NCBI GenBank assembly: GCA_964016885.1
Contig: OZ024741.1
Coordinates: forward strand, 356,376,001 to 356,440,000
Reading direction: 5' to 3'
DNA length: 64,000 nt
Source: Eledone cirrhosa
Lineage: Eukaryota
Of the stretch, positions 3,221-64,000 are shown one piece after another. Both the position numbers and the translations under genes were made by a program. Positions within the stretch are counted from its first letter, which is position 1. Every line of letters starts with the position of its first letter. Below the pieces are notes generated by a model. It worked only from the letters and a program-made list of their open reading frames with translations, was not told the DNA's origin and did not search any database.

Positions 3221-3416
3221 CAGCATCAAATACAGGATTATTCTCAAGACTTGTCACAGCAGTCACAACAGCATCTATTGCACTTCCATTTTGTTGTAAT
3301 TTCATAAATCCTAAATTAGCTGCCTGTTTTACTCCTTCTCTGCTTCTGTCAGCTATATCATCAGGTATAGCCCACGCTCCACCATGGATTACTATAATTG
3401 GTTTCATATCATTCAT
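3221..3416 (-). CDS. ASRGL1: Isoaspartyl peptidase/L-asparaginase (type 2 asparaginase), first coding exon; gene continues beyond the window start
   Basis: MNDMKPIIVIHGGAWAIPD..G...AA..G...L...GSAIDAV..AV..LENNPVFDAG is the family N-terminus. Acceptor ttttttttag| before 3452 (36 nt of UTR, then ATG 3416); phase-1 donor G|GTATGT at 3220. Confidence 0.88.
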
Positions 3417-3643
3417 ACTTCACTCCCTTCTTCCTGTGGCAAGAATTTGTTCCTAAAAAAATAAAAATTAAAACCCAGATATACATACATATAAACCCAG
3501 ATATACATACTAGACCACCCGTGACCCGTTGGGTCATGTTCACTTTAAATAATTAAAATATACAGACATGTATATAATGTATATATATGGGTCTTCCAGT
3601 TTCATTTCACGTGTATATGTGTGTTTGTATATATATATATATA

Positions 3644-4685
3644 CTAGCAGCAGTACCCAGCGTTGCCTGGGTAGGTAAAATAATATCTGCTTTGATGAAA
3701 AGGTGTTGATCTTAGTGACTGCTTCTCGATGACTCATCTATGGCCACACACAAGCCATGCAGAGGAGGATGGTGATGACCTCTATCACTGAGAAACGCAG
3801 ATGACTGACGAAGGGGCATGCTGGGGGAGGGAGGTAATGACCTCTAACACTAAGCCAAATTTCCTCACGCTACTTGATTGGAAACTGATGAATTCTCAAA
3901 TACACAACTAAAAGCTCAGACGACGTCAGTGGCTATCATTTTGCCTTTGACCATCTATAAGATGTGCAATGATAGGTTCTATCGTAGTATAAAAGTTGAA
4001 CCAAATAAATTGATTTATATGTGAGGTGGAGCTGAAGTTTCGAATTTGAACGAAATCGGTTGAAAAATGTGGGAGCTAGAGCCGAAAAGGCGGAAATTTG
4101 AGCGAAAAGGTGGTATTTTCGAATATTCAAGCGGCTGCCACGCCGTTCCTGAACAAAAAATCCAAAACGTGAAGCCACTTTAAAACGTGAAATAATCAGA
4201 TCTAGTGTAGTGTAAAATTTGAACAAAGTAGGTTGATTAATGTGGGAGCTAGAGCCGAAAAAGTGGAAATTTGAGTCTAAAAGTGGTATTTTTGAATATT
4301 TAAGCGGCTGCCACGCCGTCCCTGAACAACAAATGCAAAATATAAAGCCGTTACAGGATGTGCAATGATAAATTCTATTTTGCTTTAAAATTTGAAAGAA
4401 ATCGGTGGCAAAATGTGGGAGCTAGAGCCAAAAAATCTTATTTTTCGATATCTAAAAAAAGGTGACCCACCTATCGATTTTTATCTGCAGAATGACCCCG
4501 GAATAAAAAAAACAATACGCTGATATATAGAAAACACTCCCCAATGACTAATCTATGAGCCTGTAAGGTTTCATGAAAATCGGTTGTAAAATGTAGGCCC
4601 CTAGAGGTAATACACAGACACACAGACACACACATACTTAATTTTATATATTTTTATATATATACAGATATATATATATAGTATA
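3644..4685 (-). mobile_element. Second Helitron-like non-autonomous element nested in the first unit
   Basis: CTAG followed by hairpin TACCCAG..CTGGGTA at 3644-3672, three internal AATGTGGGAGCTAGAGCC repeats and an (ACAG/AC)n tract near the other end. A similar terminus occurs at ~26937. Confidence 0.45.
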
Positions 4686-5364
4686 TAAGAGGGATAAGTT
4701 GTAGTGTGCGGGAGAGAAGACTGCGGAGGTTGACTGCTGGGTAAAGAAGTGCCAAGAAATGCCAGTTGAAGGAAGACCACAAAAAACACGGGCGGAGGTG
4801 GTGAGAGCGGACCTCAGATCGCTGAAGCTCACGGAGGAGATGATGAAGGACTGTGACAAGTGAAGAGATGCAGTGCTGAATAGGACTCGTCCGACCCTTG
4901 CAAGCAGGGAAAAGCGGTCTCTTCCATTCTCCTTCTCCTCTCCCTCTCTTTATGTCTTTCTTTCTCTGTTTATGAACGTACCCGGAAAAACCCCATATCT
5001 TGGGAATCCGTGGTCCAATTTATATGAAACTTGTTTTATTTCATTTGTATTCCTATTTCAGTGTCAACTTCCTTTCACAGTATTTTCCCATTATGTGCCC
5101 TTTTGGGTTTATTACATTACAGACAAGCAAGCAAGCAATCACAGACTTTTAGTAATATACTAGACCACCTGTGACCTGTTGGGTCACGTTCACTTCCAAA
5201 TATTTAAAAAAATCATGTTCACTTAAAAATAATTTTTAAATAATTAAAGCATACATACATGTATATAATGTGAAATGAAACTGGAAGGCCCATATATATA
5301 CATGTGTGTATGGATATATATATATGATTGTGCGAGTGTGTGTGTGTGTATATATATATATATC

Positions 5365-7425
5365 GGAGTAGATAGGGTCATTAGAGACAAAAGACTAGCA
5401 TGGAAGGCTTGGAAAAAGGGTGGGAGTAGAGAAGGATATACAGCCGCTAAGAGAGAAGCTAGACGTCAGGGAGGCTGAGAGTAAGAGATTTGCCAATGTT
5501 CTGCAACGGGAAGATCAGAGGCGTGCGGTGTTCCACATTGCAAGGCGGTGTGTCAATGCAAATCAGGATGTTGTTGGAGATAAATGTGTCCGGAATGATG
5601 CCGGTGTACTTAGTGTCACGAATGATCAGAAAAAGGAGGCCTGGAAATGTCATTATGAGAGACTGATGAATGTGGAGAACGAATGGAAGAGAGAGAAATT
5701 ACCCTCAGTAGATCCGATAGAGGGACCAGCTATTGAGATTGACAAATATAGGGTCCAAGAGGCGATTAAGGAAATGAAAAATGGTAAGGTTGCTGGACCT
5801 TCGGGGATAGTTGCTGAGATGCTGAAGGCATCAGGGGACGTAGGCACTAAACTGGTTGCACGCATCATCAATCAGGCTATATATGGCGGTGTCATACCCA
5901 AAGACTGGTGCAGCAATATTCTCATAAATTGCTATAAAGGTAAAGGGGATGCTCTGGAGAGGAGCAATTATAGGGGTATAAAACTGATGGATCAGGTTAT
6001 GAAAGTGGCAGAAAGGATATTAACACAACTAATTAGAGAAAGGGTCAAACTAGATGAGATGCAGTTTGGTTTTGTGCCTGGGAAAAGTACAACAGATGCC
6101 CTTTTCTTGGTGAGACAATTACAAAAGAGGTTCTTAGAGAAGAATAAGCCACTATACTTAGCTTTTGTTGACCTAGAGAAAGCTTTGATAGGATACCCCG
6201 ATCTGTCATCTGGTGGTCCCTAAGGAAACTAGGTGTTGAGGAATGGCTTGTGAGGACAGTGCAAACTTTGTACAGAGGTGCTGTCAGTAAAGTCGGGTAG
6301 GAATGGAGTTTAGTGAGGAATTCCAGATACAAGTAGGAGTACATCAAAGTTCAGTCCTCAGCCTGCTCTTGTTCATTATAGTTCTCTAAGCCATAACAGA
6401 GGAGTTTAAGACTGGCTGTCCATGGGAACTTCTCTATGCTGACGATCTGGTTCTTATAGCAGAATCAGTAGAGGAGCTAGAGAATAAATTCTGGCTATGG
6501 AAACAGCAGTTGGAAGCAAGAGGACTGAGAGTGAACCTAGCTAAGACAAAAGTGTTGATGAGTAGAAAAGAGGACAAAACTCTGATTCCGTCAGGAAAAT
6601 GGCCATGTTCGATATGCAGAAAAGGAACTGGCATAAATTCCATAAAATGCACACAATGCAGATCCTGGGTACACAAGAGATGTAGTGGGATAGCAGGAAA
6701 ACTAACAAGTAGGGAGAAATACGTATGCAGTAGATGTACAGGGAAATTAGACAGTAGAAGTCACATTGATAGACACATTTTTCAAATGCAGGCGGATGCT
6801 ATAGAAGTGGTGGATAGCTTCCGGTACCTAGGAGATCAGATTAGCATGGGAGGGGGGTGTTCCGAGGCCATAGTATCTAGAATAAGGACTGGTTAGAAGA
6901 AGTTTAGGGAGCTGCTTCTTCTGCTGACAAAGAAAGGTTTCTCCCTGCATACGCAAGGCCAGTTATATGATGCCTGTGTGAGGAGCGCGATGCTGCATGG
7001 TAGTGAGACTTGGGCAGCAACTGCAGAGGATATGCGACGGCTGGAGAAAAATGAGGCAAGCATCCTCCGTTGGATATGCAATGTCAATGTGCATGAACGA
7101 CTGAGCATGAATGTGTTAGGAGAGAAACTGTCTGAGAGGGATAGAATGTAGTGTGCGAGAAAGGAGACTGAGGTGGTATGGACATGTGATGCGCATGGAG
7201 GATGACCGATGGGTGAAGAAGTGCCAGGAAATGCCAGTTGATGGAAGACGTGGTAGAGGTAGACCACGAAAAACATGGGTGGAGGTGGTCAGAACAGACC
7301 CCAGATTGCTGAAGCTCACGGTGGAGATGACGAAGGACCGTGACAAGTGGAGAGATGCTGTGCTGAATAAGACCCGTCCCACCCTTGCAAGCAGGGAAAA
7401 GCGGACGTAAAATGATGATGATGAT
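5365..7425 (+). mobile_element. RTE-clade LINE, 5'-truncated, disrupted ORF2
   Basis: RT motifs (GKVAGPSGI, NYRGIKL, QFGFVPGKSTTD, FVDLEKA, GVHQ.SVLS, LYADDL), a Cys-rich finger, RRLRWYGHVMR, GRPRKTW and an (ATG)n tail; several stops and frameshifts. Confidence 0.9.
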
Positions 7426-8017
7426 ATATATATATGTGGGTGTCTGTGATCTATATACACTGGTCATAGACACACTCACATATACACACACACACAAATT
7501 TATATACACAACACCACCAGTTCTCTCTTCCATTCTCCTTCTCCTCTCCCTCTCTCTCTGTGTTTCTCTTTCAATCTACTCTCTCACAACCACTATCTCT
7601 TACTCGCTATTTAAGAAGGTACCTGGAAAAACCTGCTATCTAGGCAACCCGTGCGCCGATTAACGCAAAACTTGTTTTATACCATTTATATTCCCATTTC
7701 AGGAGCAACTTCCTTTCAAAGTATTTCCCCATTATGCACTCCTTTTGGTTGTATTACATTACAGACAAGGAAGCAAGCAAGCAATCACAGAGTTTCAGTA
7801 GTATATAGATAGATAGATGTACTCATACATATATGCTAAGACAATATATAAACAACCAACCGGTTATTGAAACAACCAACTGGAAATTTCTAATAAATTG
7901 AAGTAAAAACTAACATGTGTGTGTGTTTCTTCTATTGGCAGCATGACCCTCCCAAAGTACAATATGTTTCAACACGTTTTCAGATAAGATATCTTGCAAA
8001 ACAAATTCAAAAACGAA

Positions 8018-8018
<1 letters not shown>

Positions 8019-8083
<65 letters not shown>
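8019..8083. repeat. (TA)n microsatellite
   Basis: Pure TA run; others at 13246-13328 and 18047-18097. Confidence 0.95.
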
Positions 8084-8086
<3 letters not shown>

Positions 8087-8207
8087 TAGTAACACAACAG
8101 TTAGTTCGCCATACCGAGAACAATTGTTTCACCTTATGCGGATCTGAAGATCCTCAAACATGGACTGAGTGCTCTACCACTACGGATGTTACCTTCCAGT
8201 GTTCTAC

Positions 8208-8238
<31 letters not shown>

Positions 8239-8239
8239 C

Positions 8240-9300
8240 TGGGGGGGGGGGGCCTTGGTCTTCGTAAGTGTTCATCCATCTCTCTCCCCTGCTTCCTTTC
8301 CTCCACCCACGCTTGCTCCACCGTGGTGAGCAGCATCCTCTCCTCTCCAACATGGACTAGTTCCAACAGGGAGTTGGGTCAAGATCTCCAGCAATGGAGT
8401 AAGTAGGGCTTGTCTCTTCCTGAGAAGGTGGAGGACAGTCGAAGTCAGACAACTTGGGACAGCATAAGTTCGAAGGCCACCTTCGACTCCCTCTTGGTCC
8501 AGTCAGATCAGTTTGCTAGGTGCTGCTTACTATCTGCCAGCGCCAAATACTCAGGCGACTAGGTTGATGCCCTATCCGTGGTCAACGTCGGTGGCCTACT
8601 CAGCCTGGACAAACTTCGTGTGTCCATCCCTCTCAGAGTGGGAGCTGACGTCTGCATGGGCTTGAGGTGGTGATCGGCAAACTCCTCGGCTCCATAGTAT
8701 TTCTTGCTGCCCGCTTCGCGCGTCACACGGGGCTAAACCTCATTCCGAAGAGAGCTTTGGCCCGGGCGAACATCCCCTCAGTCTTGGAACCATCTGGATT
8801 GTCCAGAAGTGACGGCAAAAGACCTGACGGCCTTAACCTGTGCTCCTGGTCGAGAGGCAGGTGCCTGTCTGGGACGTCACTGTTAGTGACTCTTTTGCTT
8901 TTTCCCCACATCCTGGATGCTGCGGTTAGGACGAGAGCCACAGCTTCCGCAGCCGAGCGGAGTAAGACCCTCAAATACTCTGATCTGTCGGTCAGCTACA
9001 TTTTTTAGCCTGTGGCTTTCGAGACGTTTGGGGGAGTCGGGCCGCTGACTGCGAGGTTCCTCTCGTCACTGGCGACTCGCCTAATAGAGGTAACTGGCGA
9101 ATCTCGCGAGGGCGCTTGGCTGTTCCAGCGCATTAGCCTCGCCATCAACCCAGGCAACGCTGCGAGTGTGCTGGCTTGCCTCAAAAATCATTAGAGAAGT
9201 TGCCCAGTACTCCTCGCGATGTTGCTGTCTTTTGCTCTGGTGTTGGCTCGGTTGTTCACTCCTTCCTTTACATTTTCTTTGATATTGTAACATTAAAAGA
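8240..9300 (+). mobile_element. CRE-like non-LTR retrotransposon 3' part (restriction-like endonuclease), degenerate
   Basis: LEPSGLSRSDGKRPDGL..W..G...WDVT and AFETFG..GP...FL..L..RL...TGE.RE.AWLFQRISLAI..GNAASVL; starts immediately after a (TA)n run. Confidence 0.6.
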
Positions 9301-9995
9301 ATATATCTTTCTGAATGAATCGCGAGCAATTTATGTTATCTGAGCATTTGTAATGTTATTTATGTATATATTTAAAACATATTTGTTATGTTATTCTACT
9401 GTAAATTTATTTATATGCTCTGTTTATATTTTCATTCTGAAAGAATTGCAAATGATTTGTAATGTTATTTATACAACATCGTTTACATATTAATGAAACA
9501 CAAGTTATGTAATAAATATTGATCCTTCAATTTATAAATGTAAAGTTGATACACCCATAACTAGAAATGATTACCATCAACTAAAGTAAATAAAATTTTT
9601 CCTCGTAATCATCTCACTTTAAGGGGATGAAAAAAAGCCCACTAGTCCACTTGAAAATAAGACGAAATGGTTACGACTGGATTAACTTTTATGAAAGGTC
9701 GTCCGTCGGCTCGGTTAGGGCTGACCTGGAGCTAAACAACGTGACGTTTCCATTCTCTTTTAAATAAACAGATAGTTTCTAGAATAAGGCCAGCAATTTG
9801 GTGGGGGAGAGTAGAGAAATTAAACCCCTAGTACTTGACTTGCACTTTATTGTATAGACCACGGAAGGATGAAAGACAAAGTTGACCTCGGCAAAAAGAA
9901 ATGACAAATATATCAACTTACCTGAGTGTTTAATGATCTTATAGAAAATATATTTCCGAAGGGGAAAATTGAAAAAAAATGAATATTTTTTTAAA

Positions 9996-10226
9996 CTAGG
10001 CGGGTACTTGAGATTGAACTGAAGGTTCTTGAGAACAAGTTATGCCAGTTTCTTCCTCAATTTTTTTCTGAATTTTAGCAGCCTTCTTATCATAAAAGTT
10101 TTTCATTTTCTTCAAATAGTTTACACGTACAGTTTTCAATCTGAAACCCGTTACAACACCTATAGCAAAAGCAACTGAAGCGATTATAATAATTTCTTTG
10201 CCGGTGGCTTGTATTTGGGCAAGCAT
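9996..10226 (-). CDS. MTLN: Mitoregulin-like single-pass microprotein (76 aa)
   Basis: Intact ORF (AAAATGC start, TAG stop). Hydrophobic segment IIIIASVAFAIGVVTGF followed by a basic helix. Ungapped hand alignment to human MTLN as recalled (VAFASGVLLGWQANRLRRRYLDWRKRRLQDKLAATQKKLD) gives 16 identities in 40 positions. Confidence 0.75.
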   Translation of the reverse strand: MLAQIQATGKEIIIIASVAFAIGVVTGFRLKTVRVNYLKKMKNFYDKKAAKIQKKIEEETGITCSQEPSVQSQVPA

Positions 10227-10239
10227 TTTCGACCGAGAC

Positions 10240-10370
10240 CATATAAAAACTAAATAGAAAAGTACGGAATACGAAACGCGTCACTTATGTATAAATCATG
10301 AGCATGTGTATCCGGTTAGAGGTAGTACTCTGTATCGTGCGCGTCATAAAAGACGGCCTAGTTGTTAAGT
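10240..10370 (-). promoter_or_regulatory. Candidate promoter of the MTLN-like/ASRGL1 unit
   Basis: Non-repetitive CpG-enriched patch (TGACGCGT, TGACGCGCAC) directly upstream of the ORF in CpG-poor DNA. Confidence 0.35.
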
Positions 10371-10399
10371 GTACTTTTTTAAAACTTTTATTATTGTAT

Positions 10400-11150
10400 T
10401 GCATTAGAGTAAACAAGTATTAAGATAAAACATACAAATAAAACCAATTTATATAAAAAGTGGGAGAAGAGACGCACACCAAATTGCTGCAGATGATAGC
10501 ATGGCTAAAGCGTCGGAATAACCAAGCACCCTCGCGGGCATCACCAGATACGTCGTTTAGGCGAGCTGCCAACAATGAGAAGAACGTCATTGGCAACCGC
10601 ACAACTCCCCTAATCGATTCAAATGCAACAGGCTAAAAAAGATAATTTACCAATAATTCCTGGTATTTTAGAATTTTATTCTGTTCAGCTACGGATGCCG
10701 TGACCCTCAACTTCTCCGCAACATTCAGGGTAAGGGTAGGAGCGAAAGAGTCAGTGACTGTGGTGTCCCAAATACGACATCTACCTCTTAGCTACGGTCA
10801 AAGCTCATTCAGATGAAGTAGGCCGTCGATGTTGACTACAGACAACGTATCATCGTCCCACCCCAACCAAGAATTTTACACTCCCAGAAAATAGGCTGTC
10901 CCTCGAGAATTTATTAGATTGATTAAAGAGAATGTTAAAAGTGTCTTTCGAACATAATTTGTCCCAGATTTTCTATCTAAATCTATCCTGCTTTGCACCT
11001 GGAACTAACAAATCCAGCTCCTTAGCTCACCTCCATTTAAGTAGAGCTTCCTCCACGTCCCTGTTTGAGCAAATCCATGTTGGAAAGGAAAAAATGTTAC
11101 CCACCAGAAGCGAGCAAGCATGGAACCGAGTTTGTATACACTATCAATAG
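10400..11150 (-). mobile_element. Second CRE-like element remnant
   Basis: LAARLNDVSGDAREGAWLFRRFSHAI and IWDTTVTDSFAP parallel the 8.7-9.2 kb element. Confidence 0.55.
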
Positions 11151-12289: not shown

Positions 12290-13235
12290 GAGATACTACC
12301 ACTCAGAGGAAGTGTGTCTAGCGATTTTTTCCTTAGACATTCTAACCACATCTCTGATGTCCATAGTACCGGAGCTATATCGATTTATCATCATGAATCA
12401 ACCTTCTGAAACGATCGTAAAACAATCAACTAATTAAACATTTAACTTCGCCGTTTGTTTTCAAATTGGAGATCACCTTCCGTCGTCTGCAAATTCCAGC
12501 CGACTAATGTTACACCTACCAGTCGTGATACTACTTCCAACCCGGCTGAGCATGTCAATCCTGTTCGTGAAAATAATGAACAGGCGAGGTGACAGTACGC
12601 ACTCTTGGCGGTGTCCGACTCCCACATGGAATGTCAAGTTTCGATTTAGCACCGAACACAAATACTCGGGCATTCGTATCAGGGCAGCAAGAAGCTGACC
12701 ATCAATCCCATACTCCTGCACAACCTTCCACAGTAGGCCTCGAGGAACGCGGTCACATGCCTGTTCGAGGTCTACAAAACAAGAATATACTCCTTGGCAA
12801 TACTCCCACGATTTCTGGAAGACTTGGCGCAGTGTGGATATTTGGTCAGCTGTGCTGTGTCCGGGGCAAAAACCGCACTGTTCATCAGCTAGCTTGGATT
12901 CGGCAATCTCCCTGCATCTCATTGCCAGACACTTAGCATAGACACTACTGGATAGGCTTAACAAGGAGATCCCTTTGTAATTGGAACAATCTTTCTTGTC
13001 TCCCTTTTTGAAAATTGGGATTATCTTTCCCGATTGCCATTGCTTAGGTGCCTTTCCAGAGAACCAGGTCACCCAGCACATACGAGTCAGCCAGAGAATA
13101 CTGTCTCTATTTAAGTATTTTAACATCTCGGGTCGGATTTCATCTTCCCCAGCGGCCTTGCTACATATGAACTCTTTAACTACTCTTGTGACCTCAGACG
13201 CCGAGAGGTTAGTCACCGCTCCCAGATGCATCCGA
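12290..13235 (-). mobile_element. RTE (Rex3/Expander-like) LINE RT fragment
   Basis: KAAGEDEIRPEMLK, WQSG.IIPIFKKGD, EQCGF.PG.STADQI, FVDLEQA.DRVPR, FADD. Related remnants at ~35.0-35.25, 45.0-45.2 and 60.4-60.6 kb. Confidence 0.8.
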
Positions 13236-13241
13236 CATCAC

Positions 13242-31811: not shown

Positions 31812-32511
31812 GGCACTACCATGCTATTAGCTGTCAGAAGTGAAAGTTTCGTCAACCTTCTCAATCGTAAACATCGTTTATTTCCGTATTACCACGCGTT
31901 ATTTTAATAAAGCATATCGATGTAAGTGGAGTTACTTAAATGAAAATATAGGTGGCCCTTAAAAGGGCCAAATTAGAAAACAAATTTAAGTTAATTAGTC
32001 ATGGTTATCAAATAAATTGGATTAATTTTATATTTTCATAGTCATGGTTATCAATTTCATGTATAGGGTTGGTGAAAAAAATTTGATAACCATATATTTG
32101 TTTTCTAATTTGGCCCTTTTAAGGGCCACCTATATTTTCATTTAAGTTAACTCCACTGTTGGTGAAAATGACTTGTTTTCTACATTGATAACTATGACTA
32201 TGAAAATATAGTTCATGGTATCAGCTGTCAGAAGTAACTCCACTGTTGGTGAAAATTCATTTAAGTTAATGGTATTAGCTGTCAGAAGTAATTCCACTGT
32301 TTAAAATGACTTGTTTTCTACATTGATAACCATGACTATGAAAATATAAATGATTAAATCCAATTTATTTGATAACCATGACTTGTTTTCTAATTTGGCC
32401 CTTAAAAGGGCCAAATTAAAATAACGCTTGGTAATACGGAAATAAACGATGTTTACGATTGAGAAGGTTGACGAAACTTTCCCTTCTGACAGCTAATAGC
32501 ATGGTAGTGCC
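31812..32511. mobile_element. Foldback MITE, Merlin-like termini
   Basis: ~95-bp TIRs starting GGCAC (31812-31907 / 32416-32511), flanks GCATGAAA / GCGTGAAT (6/8), nested internal inverted repeats. Confidence 0.6.
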
Positions 32512-36279: not shown

Positions 36280-37873
36280 CAGTGGCGGACATGGAAGTAA
36301 GAACACTTTTTATTTTGCATGTAACTTTTTAGTTATTTTGTTTCTGTAACTTTGCAATATGCCAAAAGAAGGAGAAATAATTTCTCTATTGCTATCTCTG
36401 TTATTAAGCCAATTAGTAAAGCGAACCAGTTTTTATGGCTCATTAACGCAATTATAGCAAGATTTTGGCGGACGTGGAAGTAAGAACACTTTGCATTTCC
36501 TATGTTTACTTTCTTCATAGCTACTCTAGCAAATTTTAGATTTGTATAATAAAATATGATTTTATATATGACATTTTTCTTTTTTCCAGCATTTTATTAT
36601 TATGGGGAGAAAAAGAGATTTGAGTCCTACTAAACGGGCACGGATCGTCGAGTTGAGAAAGTTGAATTTTTCCTTCCGCGTGTTTTCTAAGATGACAACA
36701 TGCAGCTCCACTGCTTGTATTCAAGCCTGGCGCACTTGGGAACGTACAGGATCATACAAATCGAAGCCAAAACCAGGACCAAGTCGAAAAACGGACGATC
36801 GCCAGGATAGAGCGATTGGCCGGTCATCAGAAAATGACCGAAAAAAGACTGCTGTCGAGATCTGCTCCGAAGTGAACACTTCCCACAACTCGGATATCTC
36901 AGTCAGAACTGTCCGTCGTCGTCTGCGCGAAATCGGACTCAATGGTCGCATCGCCAGACGTGTTCCGCTCATCTCACTCGCCAACCGTCGCAAACGACTT
37001 GCATTCGCATACAAATATCTCGCATGGACACCTGCTGATTGGCGCAAAGTCCTATTTTCAGATGAAAGTCTATTCACCATGGTCGGATCAGATGGCAAGA
37101 CTTATGTCAGAAGGAGAACACACTCGAGGAATTCGATGATCGGTGTTCTCAAAAAACGGTGAAACATGGTGGAAAATCGATCATGTTCTGGGGTGCATTT
37201 TCGGCTATGGGCACCGGTCCCCTTGTTCCCATTTCCGGCAGTATGAACCAGAACACTTATGTCAAGATCCTGGAAGACCATTTGGAGCCCTATGTTGATG
37301 AAAATATGCCTTTAAATTGGCAATTTGTGCAAGACAATGCCCCGTGTCATTCTGCAAAGTCGGTTAAGCAATTTTTTCATGAGAAAAAATGGAAGGTCAT
37401 CGATTGGCCTCCTCAATTGCCAGACTTAAATCGTATAGAAAACCTGTGGCATTTAATAAAGCGCGAAATTCAACATCAAAACCCAAAAAACTTTCACGAT
37501 CTGATGGCCACCATCAACCTGACATGGAACTTCAGTTTGGACCAATGCATGAAATTAGTGGAAAGTATGCCTAGAAGATGTACTGCCGTGATCAAACAGA
37601 AAGGATATGCCACCAAATATTGATTTCGACCATAATTCGAGCATTAAATGAAATAAAATAAAAGTGTTCTTACTTCCATGTCCGCCAAAATGTGGCTATA
37701 ATTGCGTTAAAGAGTCATAAGAACTGGCCTATTTGACTAATTGGCTTAATAACAGAGATAGCGATAGAGAAATTATTTCTCTTTCTTTAGGTATATTGCA
37801 AAGTTGCAGAAACGAAATATCAAAAAAGTTACATGCAAAATAAAAAGTGTTCTTACTTCCATGTCCGCCACTG
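36280..37873 (+). mobile_element. Tc1-family transposon, full length, IR/DR type, one frameshift
   Basis: TA|CAGTGG..CCACTG|TA; ~210-bp TIRs, each with two GCGGAC(A/G)TGGAAGTAAGAACACTTT repeats; transposase 36602-37623 with FSDES, QDNAPCH, LNRIENLW (DD34E). Confidence 0.95.
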
Positions 37874-46280: not shown

Positions 46281-48110
46281 TAATAATAATAATAATGAAT
46301 TATTGTGTACAGTGCTCAGGTGCACTACAACTCATCAAAGGTGCATGTATAGTACATAGAATAATGTACAAATGTCAGGAAAATGAACAGTGTATGAGTC
46401 ATGATATAATAACAATAACAATAATGAAATATTGTGTACAGTGCCCAGGTGCACCACAACTCATCAAAAAAGTGCATGTACAGTACATAGGGCAATGCAC
46501 AAACATCAGTAAAATGAACAGTGCACGAGTCATGATACACACATGTGTGCATGTGTATGGAAAGGGTACATCAGGTGTAGTTTTGGCGTATTTTGGGAAG
46601 CATGAGTGTCTTAAAGGATGCAGTGTCTCGGCAGCTAACAATTGACGCAGGCAGTTTGTTCCATGCTTCAGCAACTCTGAGCGTGAGAAAATGTCTGCGA
46701 AAGTCATGGGAGCTGTGCTGTTTTCTTATCTTGTAGGCATGTCCACGTGTGTTAGACACATGGAGATCAAAGAGGCGCTCAGGGTTGCAGTTGGCGAGAT
46801 GGTTAAAAACTTTGTGGGTATTCACCAAGTCCATTGCCAGACGTCGGAGCTTCAATGAATCCATTAGACACATGGAGATCAAAGAGGCGCTCAGGGTTGC
46901 AGTTGGCGAGATGGTTAAAAACTTTGTGGGTATTCACCAAGTCCATTGCCAGACGTCGGAGCTTCAATGAATCCATGCCCAGGGAAGCAAGGCGTTCAGA
47001 GTATGGTAGGTGTCTGATGGAGGGTATACGCTTGGTTGCACGTCTCTGAACAGTTTCCAGGAGGTCAATGTTCCGAGCAAGATAGGGGTTCCAGACTGAT
47101 GATGCGAATTCCAAGTGTGGTCGCACCATAGCTGTATACAGTTTTAAATAGATGGCTGGAGAGCGGCTAACAAAGGTCTTGCTGGGTGATGCCAAGACAC
47201 CCTCGGCCTTCTTGACAATCTTAGAGACATGCTTTGTCCAACGCAAATCGTTGCTGACAGTAATGCCCAGGTCACGTTCACAAGAGGACTTTTTGATGTC
47301 AGTGTTGTGGAGGGAGTATGTGGACGCTGGATTTTTCCTTCCAAAATGCATGGTGGTACACTTGTCCACAGCCAGCTTCAGTTGCCAGTCTGTGATCCAT
47401 TGCTGCATTGTGTCCAGGTCTGATTGTAGGAAAGAGTTGTAAATTTCAGGATCAGTCCTTTTGATTTCAAGGTACAGCTTGATGTCATCTGCATATTTTA
47501 GTACCGTGGCATTCTGTAAGTTGGCATCTATGTCATTAATATATGCCACAAACAAAAGAGGACCAAGAACAGATCCCTGTGGTACACCAGATGACATCTC
47601 ATATGGTGAAGAATGCTGTCCTAGAACCGTGACTACTTCCTTTCGGCTGAGAATGAAGGATTTCAGCCAGTCGAAAAGATCATCCCTCACACCCATTGCA
47701 GAGAGTTTTGCCATAAGTCTTTTGTGTGGCACAGAATTAAAAGCCTTAGCAAAGTCAAGGTAAACAACATCCACCCATGAGCCGCTGTCAGTGATCCGGG
47801 TGATATCCTCAAGGAACTCGATAAGCTGATCACAACAGCTGGAGTTAGGGATAAATCCAAACTGTGAGGGCCGGATGAGGCTGTGAGAGCTCCAGAAGTT
47901 CCAAAGTGTTTCTCTGACACAGGATTCCATCAGTTTGGCCATACAGCTAGTAAGACTGACTGGACAATAGTTGACAGGTGACATGCGGTTGCCCTTTTTG
48001 AACAGGGGAATGACACTGGCAGTTTTCCACTGCTCCGGAGTAGCACCATTGCTGAGACAGTATTGAAAGAAAAAAGAAAGCTGGCGCAAAAGGAAATCCC
48101 CTGATAACAG
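46281..48110 (-). mobile_element. CR1/L2-type LINE, 5'-truncated, open RT frame
   Basis: PLFKKG, QFGF, YLDFAKAF, SGVPQGSVLGPLLF, YADD, ERDLG; 112-bp tandem duplication at 46752-46975; (TTA)n tail. Confidence 0.92.
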
Positions 48111-48694
48111 AATTATAACAGAATTATGTGTTTTCTCAGGAAATTGAAATATTACATAGGAAGTCATGAGTGAAAGGTCACTTTATCTTCAATACTTCAT
48201 ACTACATTGGAAAAGAAATATTTATTTAAGGATAGGAAAGAAAAGAGCTTATCATCAAACTGGACTAAGGAAATAATGTTTCCATTTATCTGTCCATAGC
48301 TGACATTATCTGCCAGTCACAATCCCTGAGAGAAGGAGGAAAGATTTATTTAAAGTCAGAACTAACAGGGCGGGATCAGATACCACAAAATACCCTGTCC
48401 AACTTTTTAACAATCCTGTCAATCTACCGTCCCTGGACTGGTACATGATTTATTGATCCTGAAAAGATGATTGGCAAAGTTGACTTTAGTGTTATTTCAA
48501 TTCAGTGCTGAGAGCTCGAACAAATACCAAAGCATTCAATTTAACACCTGAACAACTCTGCCAGTTTGATGCCTACATGATAAAAAAAAACAGGCATTAA
48601 GATTTACTTTTTACTTTGTTTGAAAATCTATATTACCGATCCTTACATAGATTATTATAAATGATGCAAATTAAATAATAATGTTTTGTTTCAG

Positions 48695-61184: not shown

Positions 61185-64000
61185 ATCACCTATAGATCCG
61201 GGGAACACACAAGCCAGGTAGATTATATCCTTACCAGAAGACGTGACAGAGTGTCTGTTGTAAACACTAAATCCCTCCCCCATGAAGAATGCATCTCCCA
61301 ACATAGACTGATAATTAGCGACCTCATAGTCAGGACGAGACGTACTCGACAGCAGAAGAGGACTATCCTCAGGAGAAAAATATGGAAGCTAAAGGACCCC
61401 ACAGCCAGAAATAAATTTAAAAGCATATTACTTGATGCTTTCGACAGTAAGGAAGAGCATTTAGAGTCGGACAATATAGAGGGACAGTGGGAATTTCTGA
61501 AAGCAAACCTGCTGATGGCGACAGACGAAGTCTGTGGCTGGAGCAGGCCTGTAGGCAGGAGGAGAGTAACATGGTGGTGGAATAGTAAGGTGGAGGGGTC
61601 AATTAAGGCCAAAAAGCAGGCTTGGAAAGTATGGCGGGATGGGGGAAGTAGAGAAGACTATCAAGTGGCCAGGAGGGAAGCTAGGAGACAAGTGTACTTA
61701 GCAAGAAGGGAAGCAGAGGAAAGAAAGTTCAAGCATGTTCTACAACGCGAGGACCAAAAACGTGAGGTGTTCAGGATTGCTAGGTAATGCGTCAAGGAAA
61801 ACCGTGATATTGTCGGGGAGAAGTGTGTACTTAATGATGACGGCGTACTTGCCATCACCGACGCTGATAAGAAGTTAGCTTGGAAGTGTCACTATGAAAG
61901 GCTACTAAATGAGGAGAATAAATGGGAGAAAGACAGTCTCCCCCATATCGACCCAATAGAGGGACCAGCAGTGTTAGTCGAGGGGAGTATAATAAGTAAG
62001 GCAATCAAGGATATAAAGACGGGTAAGGCGGCTGGGCCTTCGGAAATAGTTGCTGAGATGCTGAAGGCATCTGGCACGGTGGGACACACCATGGTCACCC
62101 GCATAGTTAACCAAGTCGTACAGAATGGGGTTGTTCCGAAGGACTGGCATAGCAGCATCATCGTTAACTGTTATAAGGGTAAAAGAGACGCCCTAGATAG
62201 GAGTAACTATAGAGGCATTAAATTAATCGACCAGGTCATGAAGGTCACGGAAAAAGTAATAGCGCAACTAATCAGAGAGAGAATTGACCTAGATGAAATG
62301 CAGTTCGGGTTTGTGTCAGGCAAAAGTACCACAGACGCTCTTTTCATTGTACGACAATTTCAGGAGAAGTACCTAGCTAAAGGTAAACCCCTCTACTTAG
62401 CTTTTGTCGACTTGGAGAAAGCCTTCGACAGTCCCCCGCTCCATTATCTGGTGGGCTCTTAGAAAACTAGGCGTTGACGAATGGCTTGTGAGAGCTATAC
62501 AAGCCATGTATAAAGAAACAGTCAGCAAGGTTAGAATTAACAACGAATATAGTGAAGAGTTTAGCGTAAAAGTTGGCGTCCATCAGGGCTCTGTTCTCAG
62601 CCCCCTACTATTTATTATTGCCCTTCAGGCTATAACAGAGGAGTTCAAGACCGGCTGCCCATGGGAACTCCTATACGCAGACGACCTGACACTCATAGCT
62701 GAATCAATGGCCGAGCTAGAGAAGAAATTCCAAACATGGAAGCACGGCCTAGAATCAAAAGGACTTAAAATTAACCTGGCTAAGACTAAAGTTCTAGTTT
62801 GTAGGAAAGAAAATAAGGCGGCGGTCCCTTCTGGGAAATGGTCATGCTCAGTGTGTAGGAAAGGCGTAGGTAGAAACTCCATTTTATGTCCTAAATGCAA
62901 AGTATGGGTGCATAAAAGATGTAGTGGGATCACAGGTAAGCTAACTAAGAACATAGATTTTACATGTGGCCAGTGCTCTGGTGCAATAAGTAGCAGCAAG
63001 TGCCCACAAAATACTAGCTCTTTCAATTGCGCAGAGGGTTCTATAGAAATAGTGGACAGCTTCCGTTACCTGGGCGATAAAATCAGCAGTGGGGGAGGGT
63101 GCTCTGAAAGTACAGTAGCTAGAGTCAGAACTGGTTGGAAAAAGTTCAGAGAGCTTATACCACTATTAGCTGCTAAAGGGTTCTCCCTAAAAATGAAAGG
63201 CAGGTTGTACGATGCCTGCATACGAACAGCAATGTTGCATGGCAGTGAGACCTGGGCATTGTGTGCAGAGGATATACGCAGACTAGAGAGGAACGAAGCT
63301 TGCATGCTCCGCTGGATGTGTAATAGTAATATACGTGAACGGCAAAGCATAAACGAACTAAGGAAAAAATTAGAAATAAGAGGGATCAGATGTTGTTTAC
63401 TCGAGAGAAGGCTACGTTGGTATGGACACGTGATGCGCATGAAAGTCGATAGCTGTATAACAAAGTGCAGGGCAATAAAGATAGACGGTAGCCACGGAAT
63501 AGGCAGACCTAGAAAAACCTGGGACGAGCTGATAAACTCCGACCTCACACACTTACACCTCTCCAAGACAATGTCACTGGACCGAGACCTTTGGCGGTAC
63601 TCAGTAACAGAGAAGACCTGCCTTACCTAAATACATAGTAAAACCTACTACAGCCAATAGGCATCTCTAACAAAATACACCCCGTCCCACCCCATCCACA
63701 CCACCCCGTTCTATGTAAAGTTATGTTGGTGCCGCGCCATCCAGGCCGAAACAAATGAGATCGTGTAGGTGTCACGACAAAAAAACACACAGTCCACGCT
63801 GTAATGTGGCCGTGTAGGCAACACGGTAAAAACCTCCCAGACCCACACTGTAAATGTGGTTGGTGTTAGGAAGGGCATCCAACTGTAGAAAACCTGCCAG
63901 ACAGTCCTATGCGAGCATGACAATCACTCTTGCCTCAAGTGGGACTACCCCCGTCCAAACCCATGCAAGCATGGAACACGGAAGTTAAACGTTGATGATG
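61185..64000 (+). mobile_element. RTE-clade LINE, 5'-truncated, young
   Basis: End of the APE domain (SQVDYIL, SQHRL), RT (GVHQGSVLSPLLF, YADD), PHD-like finger, 3' UTR and GATGATG tail; one stop near 61787 and one frameshift near 62430. Confidence 0.93.

Follow-up and report, generated by a model that had tools for sequence, protein, structure and literature searches.

The stretch of DNA analysed here (64 000 nt, referred to as the window; G000:C2:356376001-356440000) belongs to contig OZ024741.1 of Eledone cirrhosa, whose genome comprises 3.0 billion bases and is rich in repeats. Towards its left end, on the minus strand, the window contains an exon with a small open reading frame (ORF) resembling mitoregulin and, below it, the start exon of ASRGL1, the gene for isoaspartyl peptidase/L-asparaginase. 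The two exons were found joined in an assembled contig, and a single mRNA is likely to encode both the predicted mitochondrial membrane microprotein and the enzyme. We consider it probable that this is a bicistronic mRNA of the MIURF-MIEF1 or STREMI-SLC35A4 kind, having the mitoregulin-like protein as its main product and yielding ASRGL1 by re-initiation or leaky scanning. In agreement with the definition used for this class (PMC13303939), the joined sequence contains two non-fused ORFs of at least 30 codons, each matching known proteins over at least 80% of its length. The pairing does not require the two proteins to act together. The features of the locus are as follows:

9922-10389, minus strand: exon 1 (468 nt) to the extent that the RNA-like contig covers it; the mRNA may begin elsewhere
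9996-10226, minus strand: mitoregulin-like ORF (76 aa); start context with A at -3 and C at +4
3453-9921, minus strand: intron 1 (GT-AG, 6469 nt), containing fragments of long interspersed nuclear elements (LINEs), a short high-copy repeat and microsatellites
3221-3452, minus strand: ASRGL1 exon 2 (232 nt), made up of 36 nt of spacer, the ATG at 3416 and then 65 codons
C2 356371646-356371504 and 356371004-356370835, minus strand: ASRGL1 exons 3 and 4, left of the window
C2 356357787-356357666, 356356139-356356029 and from 356353901, minus strand: ASRGL1 exons 5 to 7, left of the window

Recomputation confirmed all coordinates given in an initial annotation made from the sequence. The stop codon of the microprotein lies 74 nt from the end of exon 1 at 9922, where the donor reads CAG/GTAAGT; a T-rich tract precedes the acceptor of the ASRGL1 start exon at 3452. 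Exon 1 is present as a single copy in the genome. Joining 9922 to 3452 leaves a spacer of 110 nt between the two ORFs, free of ATG; the part contributed by exon 2 includes an in-frame TGA immediately upstream of the ASRGL1 ATG. Since the two frames differ and this TGA precedes the ATG, no fusion protein is possible. A second possible acceptor (CAG/GAAG at 3433, 19 nt below 3452) was unused in the one contig seen; it would give a spacer of 91 nt, still out of frame. Whichever of the two acceptors is used, the frames differ and stop codons lie in between, so a fusion or read-through protein was ruled out.

Exon 1 was found in four assembled sequencing runs, all from one study and none recorded as RNA. 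Three of them (X1, X2 and X4; X3 was left out) were compared with window positions 9700-10900 only, and 18 of the 68 loose ends and 24 of the 1264 pieces were viewed. Such contigs show presence, not absence; they drop rare forms and cannot show where transcription starts. X1 and X2 (∼1400 million letters) derive from one sample, possibly the source of the genome assembly, and X4 (88 million letters) from another. X1 and X2 run through the donor at 9921 into intron 1, as expected of DNA. In X4, record 24 (1014 nt, depth 36.5) spans positions 9921-10389 without a break, and the 30 letters shown at its loose end at 9921 are those of positions 3422-3451, which occur once in the window. As bases 9921 and 3452 are both G, the joint corresponds to 9922 and 3452. 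The record extends 545 letters past the joint, compared with 544 for exons 3 and 4 together with what remains of exon 2; exons 1 to 4 sum to 1013 nt vs the 1014 nt of the record. The splicing of the microprotein exon to the ASRGL1 ATG exon, which the initial annotation had proposed, is therefore reproduced with base precision in an RNA-like contig, and the 9922-3452 junction it had named as a check is present in X4 record 24. By its length, the contig ends one letter past exon 4 (C2 356370835), which hints at a branch there, an alternative splice or a variant.

Within positions 9700-10900, X4 covered 9921-10389 only, except for pieces of a high-copy repeat around ∼9800-9895, and among its contigs no cover was seen at 10397-10900. 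The X4 depths in the two edge bins (22.3 and 30.3) equal the contribution of record 24 alone, indicating that exon 1 and the adjoining edge of the intron show no other X4 contig. From this behaviour we infer X4 to be RNA. If X4 were DNA instead, the joined form would be a processed copy present in the genome of that sample. The kind of run is not on record, which would permit this explanation, but X4 is far smaller than X1 and X2, it covers exon 1 and nothing of 10397-10900, and a search with the PF01112 profile found no intron-less copy of ASRGL1 in the genome; we therefore regard it as extremely unlikely. A processed copy would, in any case, itself derive from the joined mRNA.

The presence of both ORFs on one spliced sequence was seen in a single short-read contig, and two overlapping mRNAs would give the same contig. 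One of them would encode the mitoregulin-like protein and end at a poly(A) signal within exon 1, the other would encode ASRGL1 and start below the microprotein AUG, and short-read assembly would have merged the two. A suitable signal exists, since the ATTAAA that the initial annotation had placed just before the donor was located at 9934-9929:

9929-9934, minus strand: ATTAAA, a candidate by sequence for the poly(A) signal of a short single-gene form

A tail extending 10-30 nt past the ATTAAA would be a short side branch of the type that assemblies tend to drop. No X4 cover was seen between 9895 and 9920, where a short tail could still escape such contigs. In flies, moreover, both genes also occur as single-gene forms at 45 of the 159 dicistronic loci (PMC4528330). 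On the other side, the contig runs from 10389 across the junction without a break, the ATTAAA lies only 7-12 nt from a consensus donor, and nothing indicates an inner start; the CpG observed/expected ratio is 1.2-1.4 over 10001-10500 vs 0.50 for the window, as would suit a promoter at the upper end of exon 1. Merging of two overlapping mRNAs is thus judged unlikely. A short repeat of very high copy number (9817-9895) begins 26 nt inside intron 1 and contains an AATAAA at 9851, which could serve as a second poly(A) site for an RNA encoding the microprotein only; the depth over this repeat derives from its other copies.

The joined mRNA might also serve chiefly for the mitoregulin-like protein, with ASRGL1 expressed in other tissues from another first exon or promoter in intron 1; the joined form would then be a read-through product, perhaps a target of nonsense-mediated decay (NMD). 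The good start context and the length of the first ORF would suit this explanation, as would a stop codon 74 nt before a junction. In addition, one RNA-like sample was seen, and the reads were compared outside the bulk of intron 1. Nevertheless, the X4 contig passes the acceptor unbroken, where frequent use of another first exon should have interrupted it, and intron 1 is mostly repeat, which together make the explanation quite unlikely. At least 4028 of the 6469 nt of the intron (62%) match sequences elsewhere in a comparison with only 138 kb of DNA, in keeping with the claim of the initial annotation that this interval is mostly transposons (repeats make up 62-65% in this comparison, which is a lower bound). 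Positions 8300-9330 correspond to a high-copy element with dozens of copies at ∼90% identity (of 4303 candidates, 40 were scored and gave 46 matches), and a 173-nt unit is repeated 2.3 times at 4043-4435. The stop 74 nt before the junction may or may not trigger decay in this animal, and taking NMD escape to be implied, as the initial annotation did, goes beyond the data. Under the usual NMD model, translation of ASRGL1 would take ribosomes past the later junctions.

The 76-codon ORF matched the Pfam MTLN profile (PF22002) with 25.1 bits (E 1.6e-5) over profile positions 12-54 of 56. It is not filed here as a formal member of PF22002 since this score is under the gathering cut-off of 27 bits. 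When the whole genome was searched with MTLN, the ORF (24.6 bits) was the best of seven weak matches by a small margin (E 0.075 vs 0.30); a search of the genome with its own sequence returned the ORF itself as the only match. An HMMER scan retrieved five relatives at E ≤ 0.001 with 30-58% identity, the two closest being 57-58% identical (E 7e-17 and 2e-16). The alignment pairs residues 7-73 of the 76 with residues 3-69 of 78. Four of the five nearest relatives exceed the MTLN cut-off, including P0001 (57% identical, 35.2 bits), and P0002 fails at 23. A profile search then gave 10 proteins, five of them new and five already in the query, and 9 of the 10 carry PF22002. The relatives share with the ORF the approximate start position and residues F20, G23, G27, K31, R34 and L38, as well as a hydrophobic segment and a basic tail. 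In the ORF, the hydrophobic segment occupies approximately residues 9-29 and is followed by a basic helix (19-residue hydropathy up to 1.88 from residue 11; 11 lysine or arginine vs one acidic residue in 28-56). The predicted structure consists of one helix (residues 9-59; mean predicted local distance difference test score, pLDDT, of 68) and a low-confidence C-terminal tail of ∼18 residues. A single variant was observed within the ORF (position 10164; X4 and X2). It leaves the microprotein unchanged and alters a residue in an overlapping frame, but one site is weak evidence.

Could the small ORF be a decayed or chance upstream ORF with no functional protein? Its score below the Pfam cut-off would allow this, as would the word-index search with the single ORF sequence, which gave no match, and the ESM Atlas score of 0.83, a lead only, tied with two phage clusters. 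Against it stand the identity and E-values of the two closest relatives, the start position, hydrophobic segment and basic tail that the relatives have in common, and the finding of no better copy in the genome. A chance ORF is therefore very unlikely; the similarities point to a conserved mitoregulin-like protein and a probable orthologue of mitoregulin, predicted to reside in the mitochondrial membrane. The window ORF itself was not found in the protein-cluster collection that contains the 10 relatives, and no longer, fused forms of the microprotein were detected among 8000 sequences scored with an 11-sequence profile, which is weak evidence. Seven relatives (P0002, P0003, P0006, P0007, P0008, P0011 and P0012) are 60-80 aa long and lie on contigs of up to 1.0-2.3 kb, which could have room for a second ORF; long untranslated tails would explain these lengths equally well. 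In a metagenome scan, one of 31 pattern matches passed (L023), and it was rejected as a chance match of 11 residues in a frame broken by stops.

The downstream ORF is intact. The ASRGL1 frame comprises 314 codons without a stop in six coding exons, all six introns being GT-AG, and its exons span positions 1-306 of the 309 of PF01112; exon 2 on its own scored 50.6 bits, above the cut-off. The best solved-structure matches of exon 2 are human isoaspartyl peptidase/L-asparaginase. Isoaspartyl peptidases rank above aspartylglucosaminidase and threonine aspartase, this being a ranking of structure matches and not a tree. Thr175 aligns with residue 1 of the solved beta chains, so the nucleophile threonine is kept. 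PF01112 gave 11 matches in the genome, namely the six exons described here, four exons on contig C1 and one intron-less frame on C1. From motifs, we take the two C1 loci to be AGA-like and TASP1-like, for which reason the gene on C2 appears to be the only ASRGL1 of the genome. The intron-less frame on C1 (L002, G000:C1:163701422-163702312; 399 residues), presumably the taspase 1-like one by the same motifs, is a possible retrogene.

The leader contains further start codons, which bear on the mechanism of translation and were not mentioned in the initial annotation:

10090-10242, minus strand: overlapping out-of-frame ORF of 50 codons with a weak start (T at -3, G at +4)
10285-10347, minus strand: three in-frame upstream ATGs (10347, 10305 and 10299) sharing a stop at 10285

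The contig thus has seven ATGs before that of ASRGL1 (10347, 10305, 10299, 10242, 10226, 10106 and 10093); the first three would be part of the mRNA only with a start site above them. The ATG at 10106 is in frame with the microprotein, and that at 10093, which is weak, is overlapped by the stop of the 50-codon ORF. This ORF had no Pfam match and no likeness to the MTLN alignment. The spacer has a G+C content of 29% and is unstructured (z 0.09), no special RNA structure was found in the leader, the ORF or the spacer (z between -0.1 and 0.64), and an Rfam scan gave no match in the locus.

Transcription would start in the CpG-rich stretch above 10226, and most scanning ribosomes would initiate at the microprotein AUG, with its A at -3. 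The microprotein is probably the main product of the mRNA, as has been stated for altMiD51 in MIEF1 in passages of PMC11837024. A smaller output of ASRGL1 would come from ribosomes that resume initiation beyond an upstream stop codon, and two routes may be envisaged. In the first, ribosomes would re-initiate after the microprotein stop, across the AUG-free spacer of 110 nt. In the second, the weak 50-codon ORF would carry ribosomes past the microprotein AUG, leaving 205 AUG-free nt before the AUG of ASRGL1. Re-initiation is favoured because pure leaky scanning must pass several ATGs; leaky scanning would add a smaller share, as the AUGs at 10106 and 10093 stand in its way.

Several points weigh against a bicistronic mRNA. 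The junction is based on one contig from one run of one study, and a contig across two genes need not be a single transcript. The RNA status of X4 is deduced from its behaviour. Beyond the joint, 30 letters were seen, and exons 3 and 4 were matched by length alone. The small ORF falls short of the Pfam cut-off. A spacer without ATG was also reached by 13% of shuffles (P 0.13), and avoidance of ATG in general was not significant (2 seen vs 4.3 expected, P 0.13); the ATG-free stretch of 205 nt gave P 0.024, but it was chosen after looking. At 50-76 codons, the upstream ORFs are long for ribosomes to re-initiate efficiently. Finally, no linked or fused relative was found in other species in two weak tests.

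Bicistronic mRNAs with an upstream microprotein are an established class, as set out in sections of PMC13303939. The human cases given there and in passages of PMC11837024 are MIURF(altMiD51)-MIEF1, STREMI-SLC35A4, PYURF-PIGY and ASDURF-ASNSD1. The locus described here resembles those covered in these sources in that the 5′ leader of an enzyme or transporter gene encodes a conserved, often mitochondrial microprotein unrelated to it, and in that both partners are older than their pairing. It differs in its partners and phylum, and it is known from a genome and assembled contigs. ASRGL1 keeps its introns, unlike SLC35A4, for which a retroposed origin has been proposed; since the downstream ORF keeps its introns, ASRGL1 is not a retroposed partner, and if anything moved, it would have been the intron-less ORF of the microprotein. 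The origin of the pair would likely lie in two older, separate genes that became united under one promoter.

In Drosophila, 159 dicistronic pairs have been described, with small proteins over-represented (PMC4528330; PMC2276209), and the stop-to-start distances of the obligate ones range from -34 to 319 nt (PMC4528330). The 110-nt spacer falls inside this range, and the locus is like fly dicistronic genes such as Tim9b-CG12788 in being an invertebrate, spliced case with a small mitochondrial protein upstream. The main text of PMC2276209 contains no asparaginase pair.

Vertebrate mitoregulin (MTLN, LINC00116, MOXI; PF22002) resembles the small ORF in its hydrophobic N-terminal segment and basic part; the latter differs in having 76 aa with a tail vs 56 aa, and in lying in the leader of another gene. 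In humans, the first exon of ASRGL1 is non-coding and MTLN is on another chromosome. The product of exon 2 is like human ASRGL1 in its best structure matches and in keeping the beta-chain threonine of this N-terminal nucleophile (Ntn) hydrolase family (PF01112), but the leader exon here encodes a second protein. Passages of a 2025 review (PMC11920140) describe the vertebrate protein as small and single-pass, its N-terminal segment being hydrophobic and its C-terminal part basic, and state that mitoregulin is generally not believed to exist beyond vertebrates; neither 'bicistronic' nor 'uORF' (upstream ORF) appears in those passages. No report of the ASRGL1-mitoregulin pairing was found in the open-access literature, a matter on which supplementary lists of polycistronic genes could bear. 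Likewise, no relevant open-access report was found of bicistronic microproteins in molluscs, of a bicistronic ASRGL1 or of a mitochondrial protein paired with an asparaginase on a dicistronic mRNA in Drosophila.

The ASRGL1-mitoregulin pairing is therefore a new pair within an established class. It extends the short list of animal mRNAs for two conserved proteins outside model species, and it lends itself to testing whether such unions form by the chance joining of older genes. The locus also extends mitoregulin-like genes to an invertebrate, counter to the usual vertebrate-only statement as worded in the review passages above (PMC11920140); databases already contain such sequences, in the form of Pfam tags and an ESM Atlas cluster. 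Standard annotation would class exon 1 as an untranslated leader, and knocking out one of the two genes could affect the other as well. On a more speculative and rather doubtful reading, mitoregulin would be an old animal gene that in invertebrates travels as a passenger first cistron and changes hosts, having been missed outside vertebrates because it is hidden in the 5′ leaders of other genes; the leader ORFs, the 50-codon one acting as an ATF4-like bypass, would then set the level of the isoaspartyl-repair enzyme under stress.

In the rest of the window (10300-64000), 24 longer frames of the 151 listed were scanned, and none was recognised as a host gene. Two Rfam matches to the histone 3′ stem-loop (31930-31974, minus strand, and 32107-32152, plus strand) lie within 31812-32511 and are embedded in inverted repeats, nested and up to 97 nt long; this segment is more likely to be a fold-back element than histone genes, histone ORFs nearby not having been searched for. 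Transposon frames were seen at the following places in the window:

36572-37623, plus strand: Tc1/mariner-type transposase in two frames, with HTH_Tnp_Tc3_2 and DDE_3
46803-48182, minus strand: LINE-type reverse-transcriptase frame
61788-63630, plus strand: LINE-type reverse-transcriptase frame
12473-13237, minus strand: LINE-type reverse-transcriptase frame
5666-6223, plus strand: LINE-type reverse-transcriptase frame

A PHD finger was also present in the reverse-transcriptase frame at 62401-63630.

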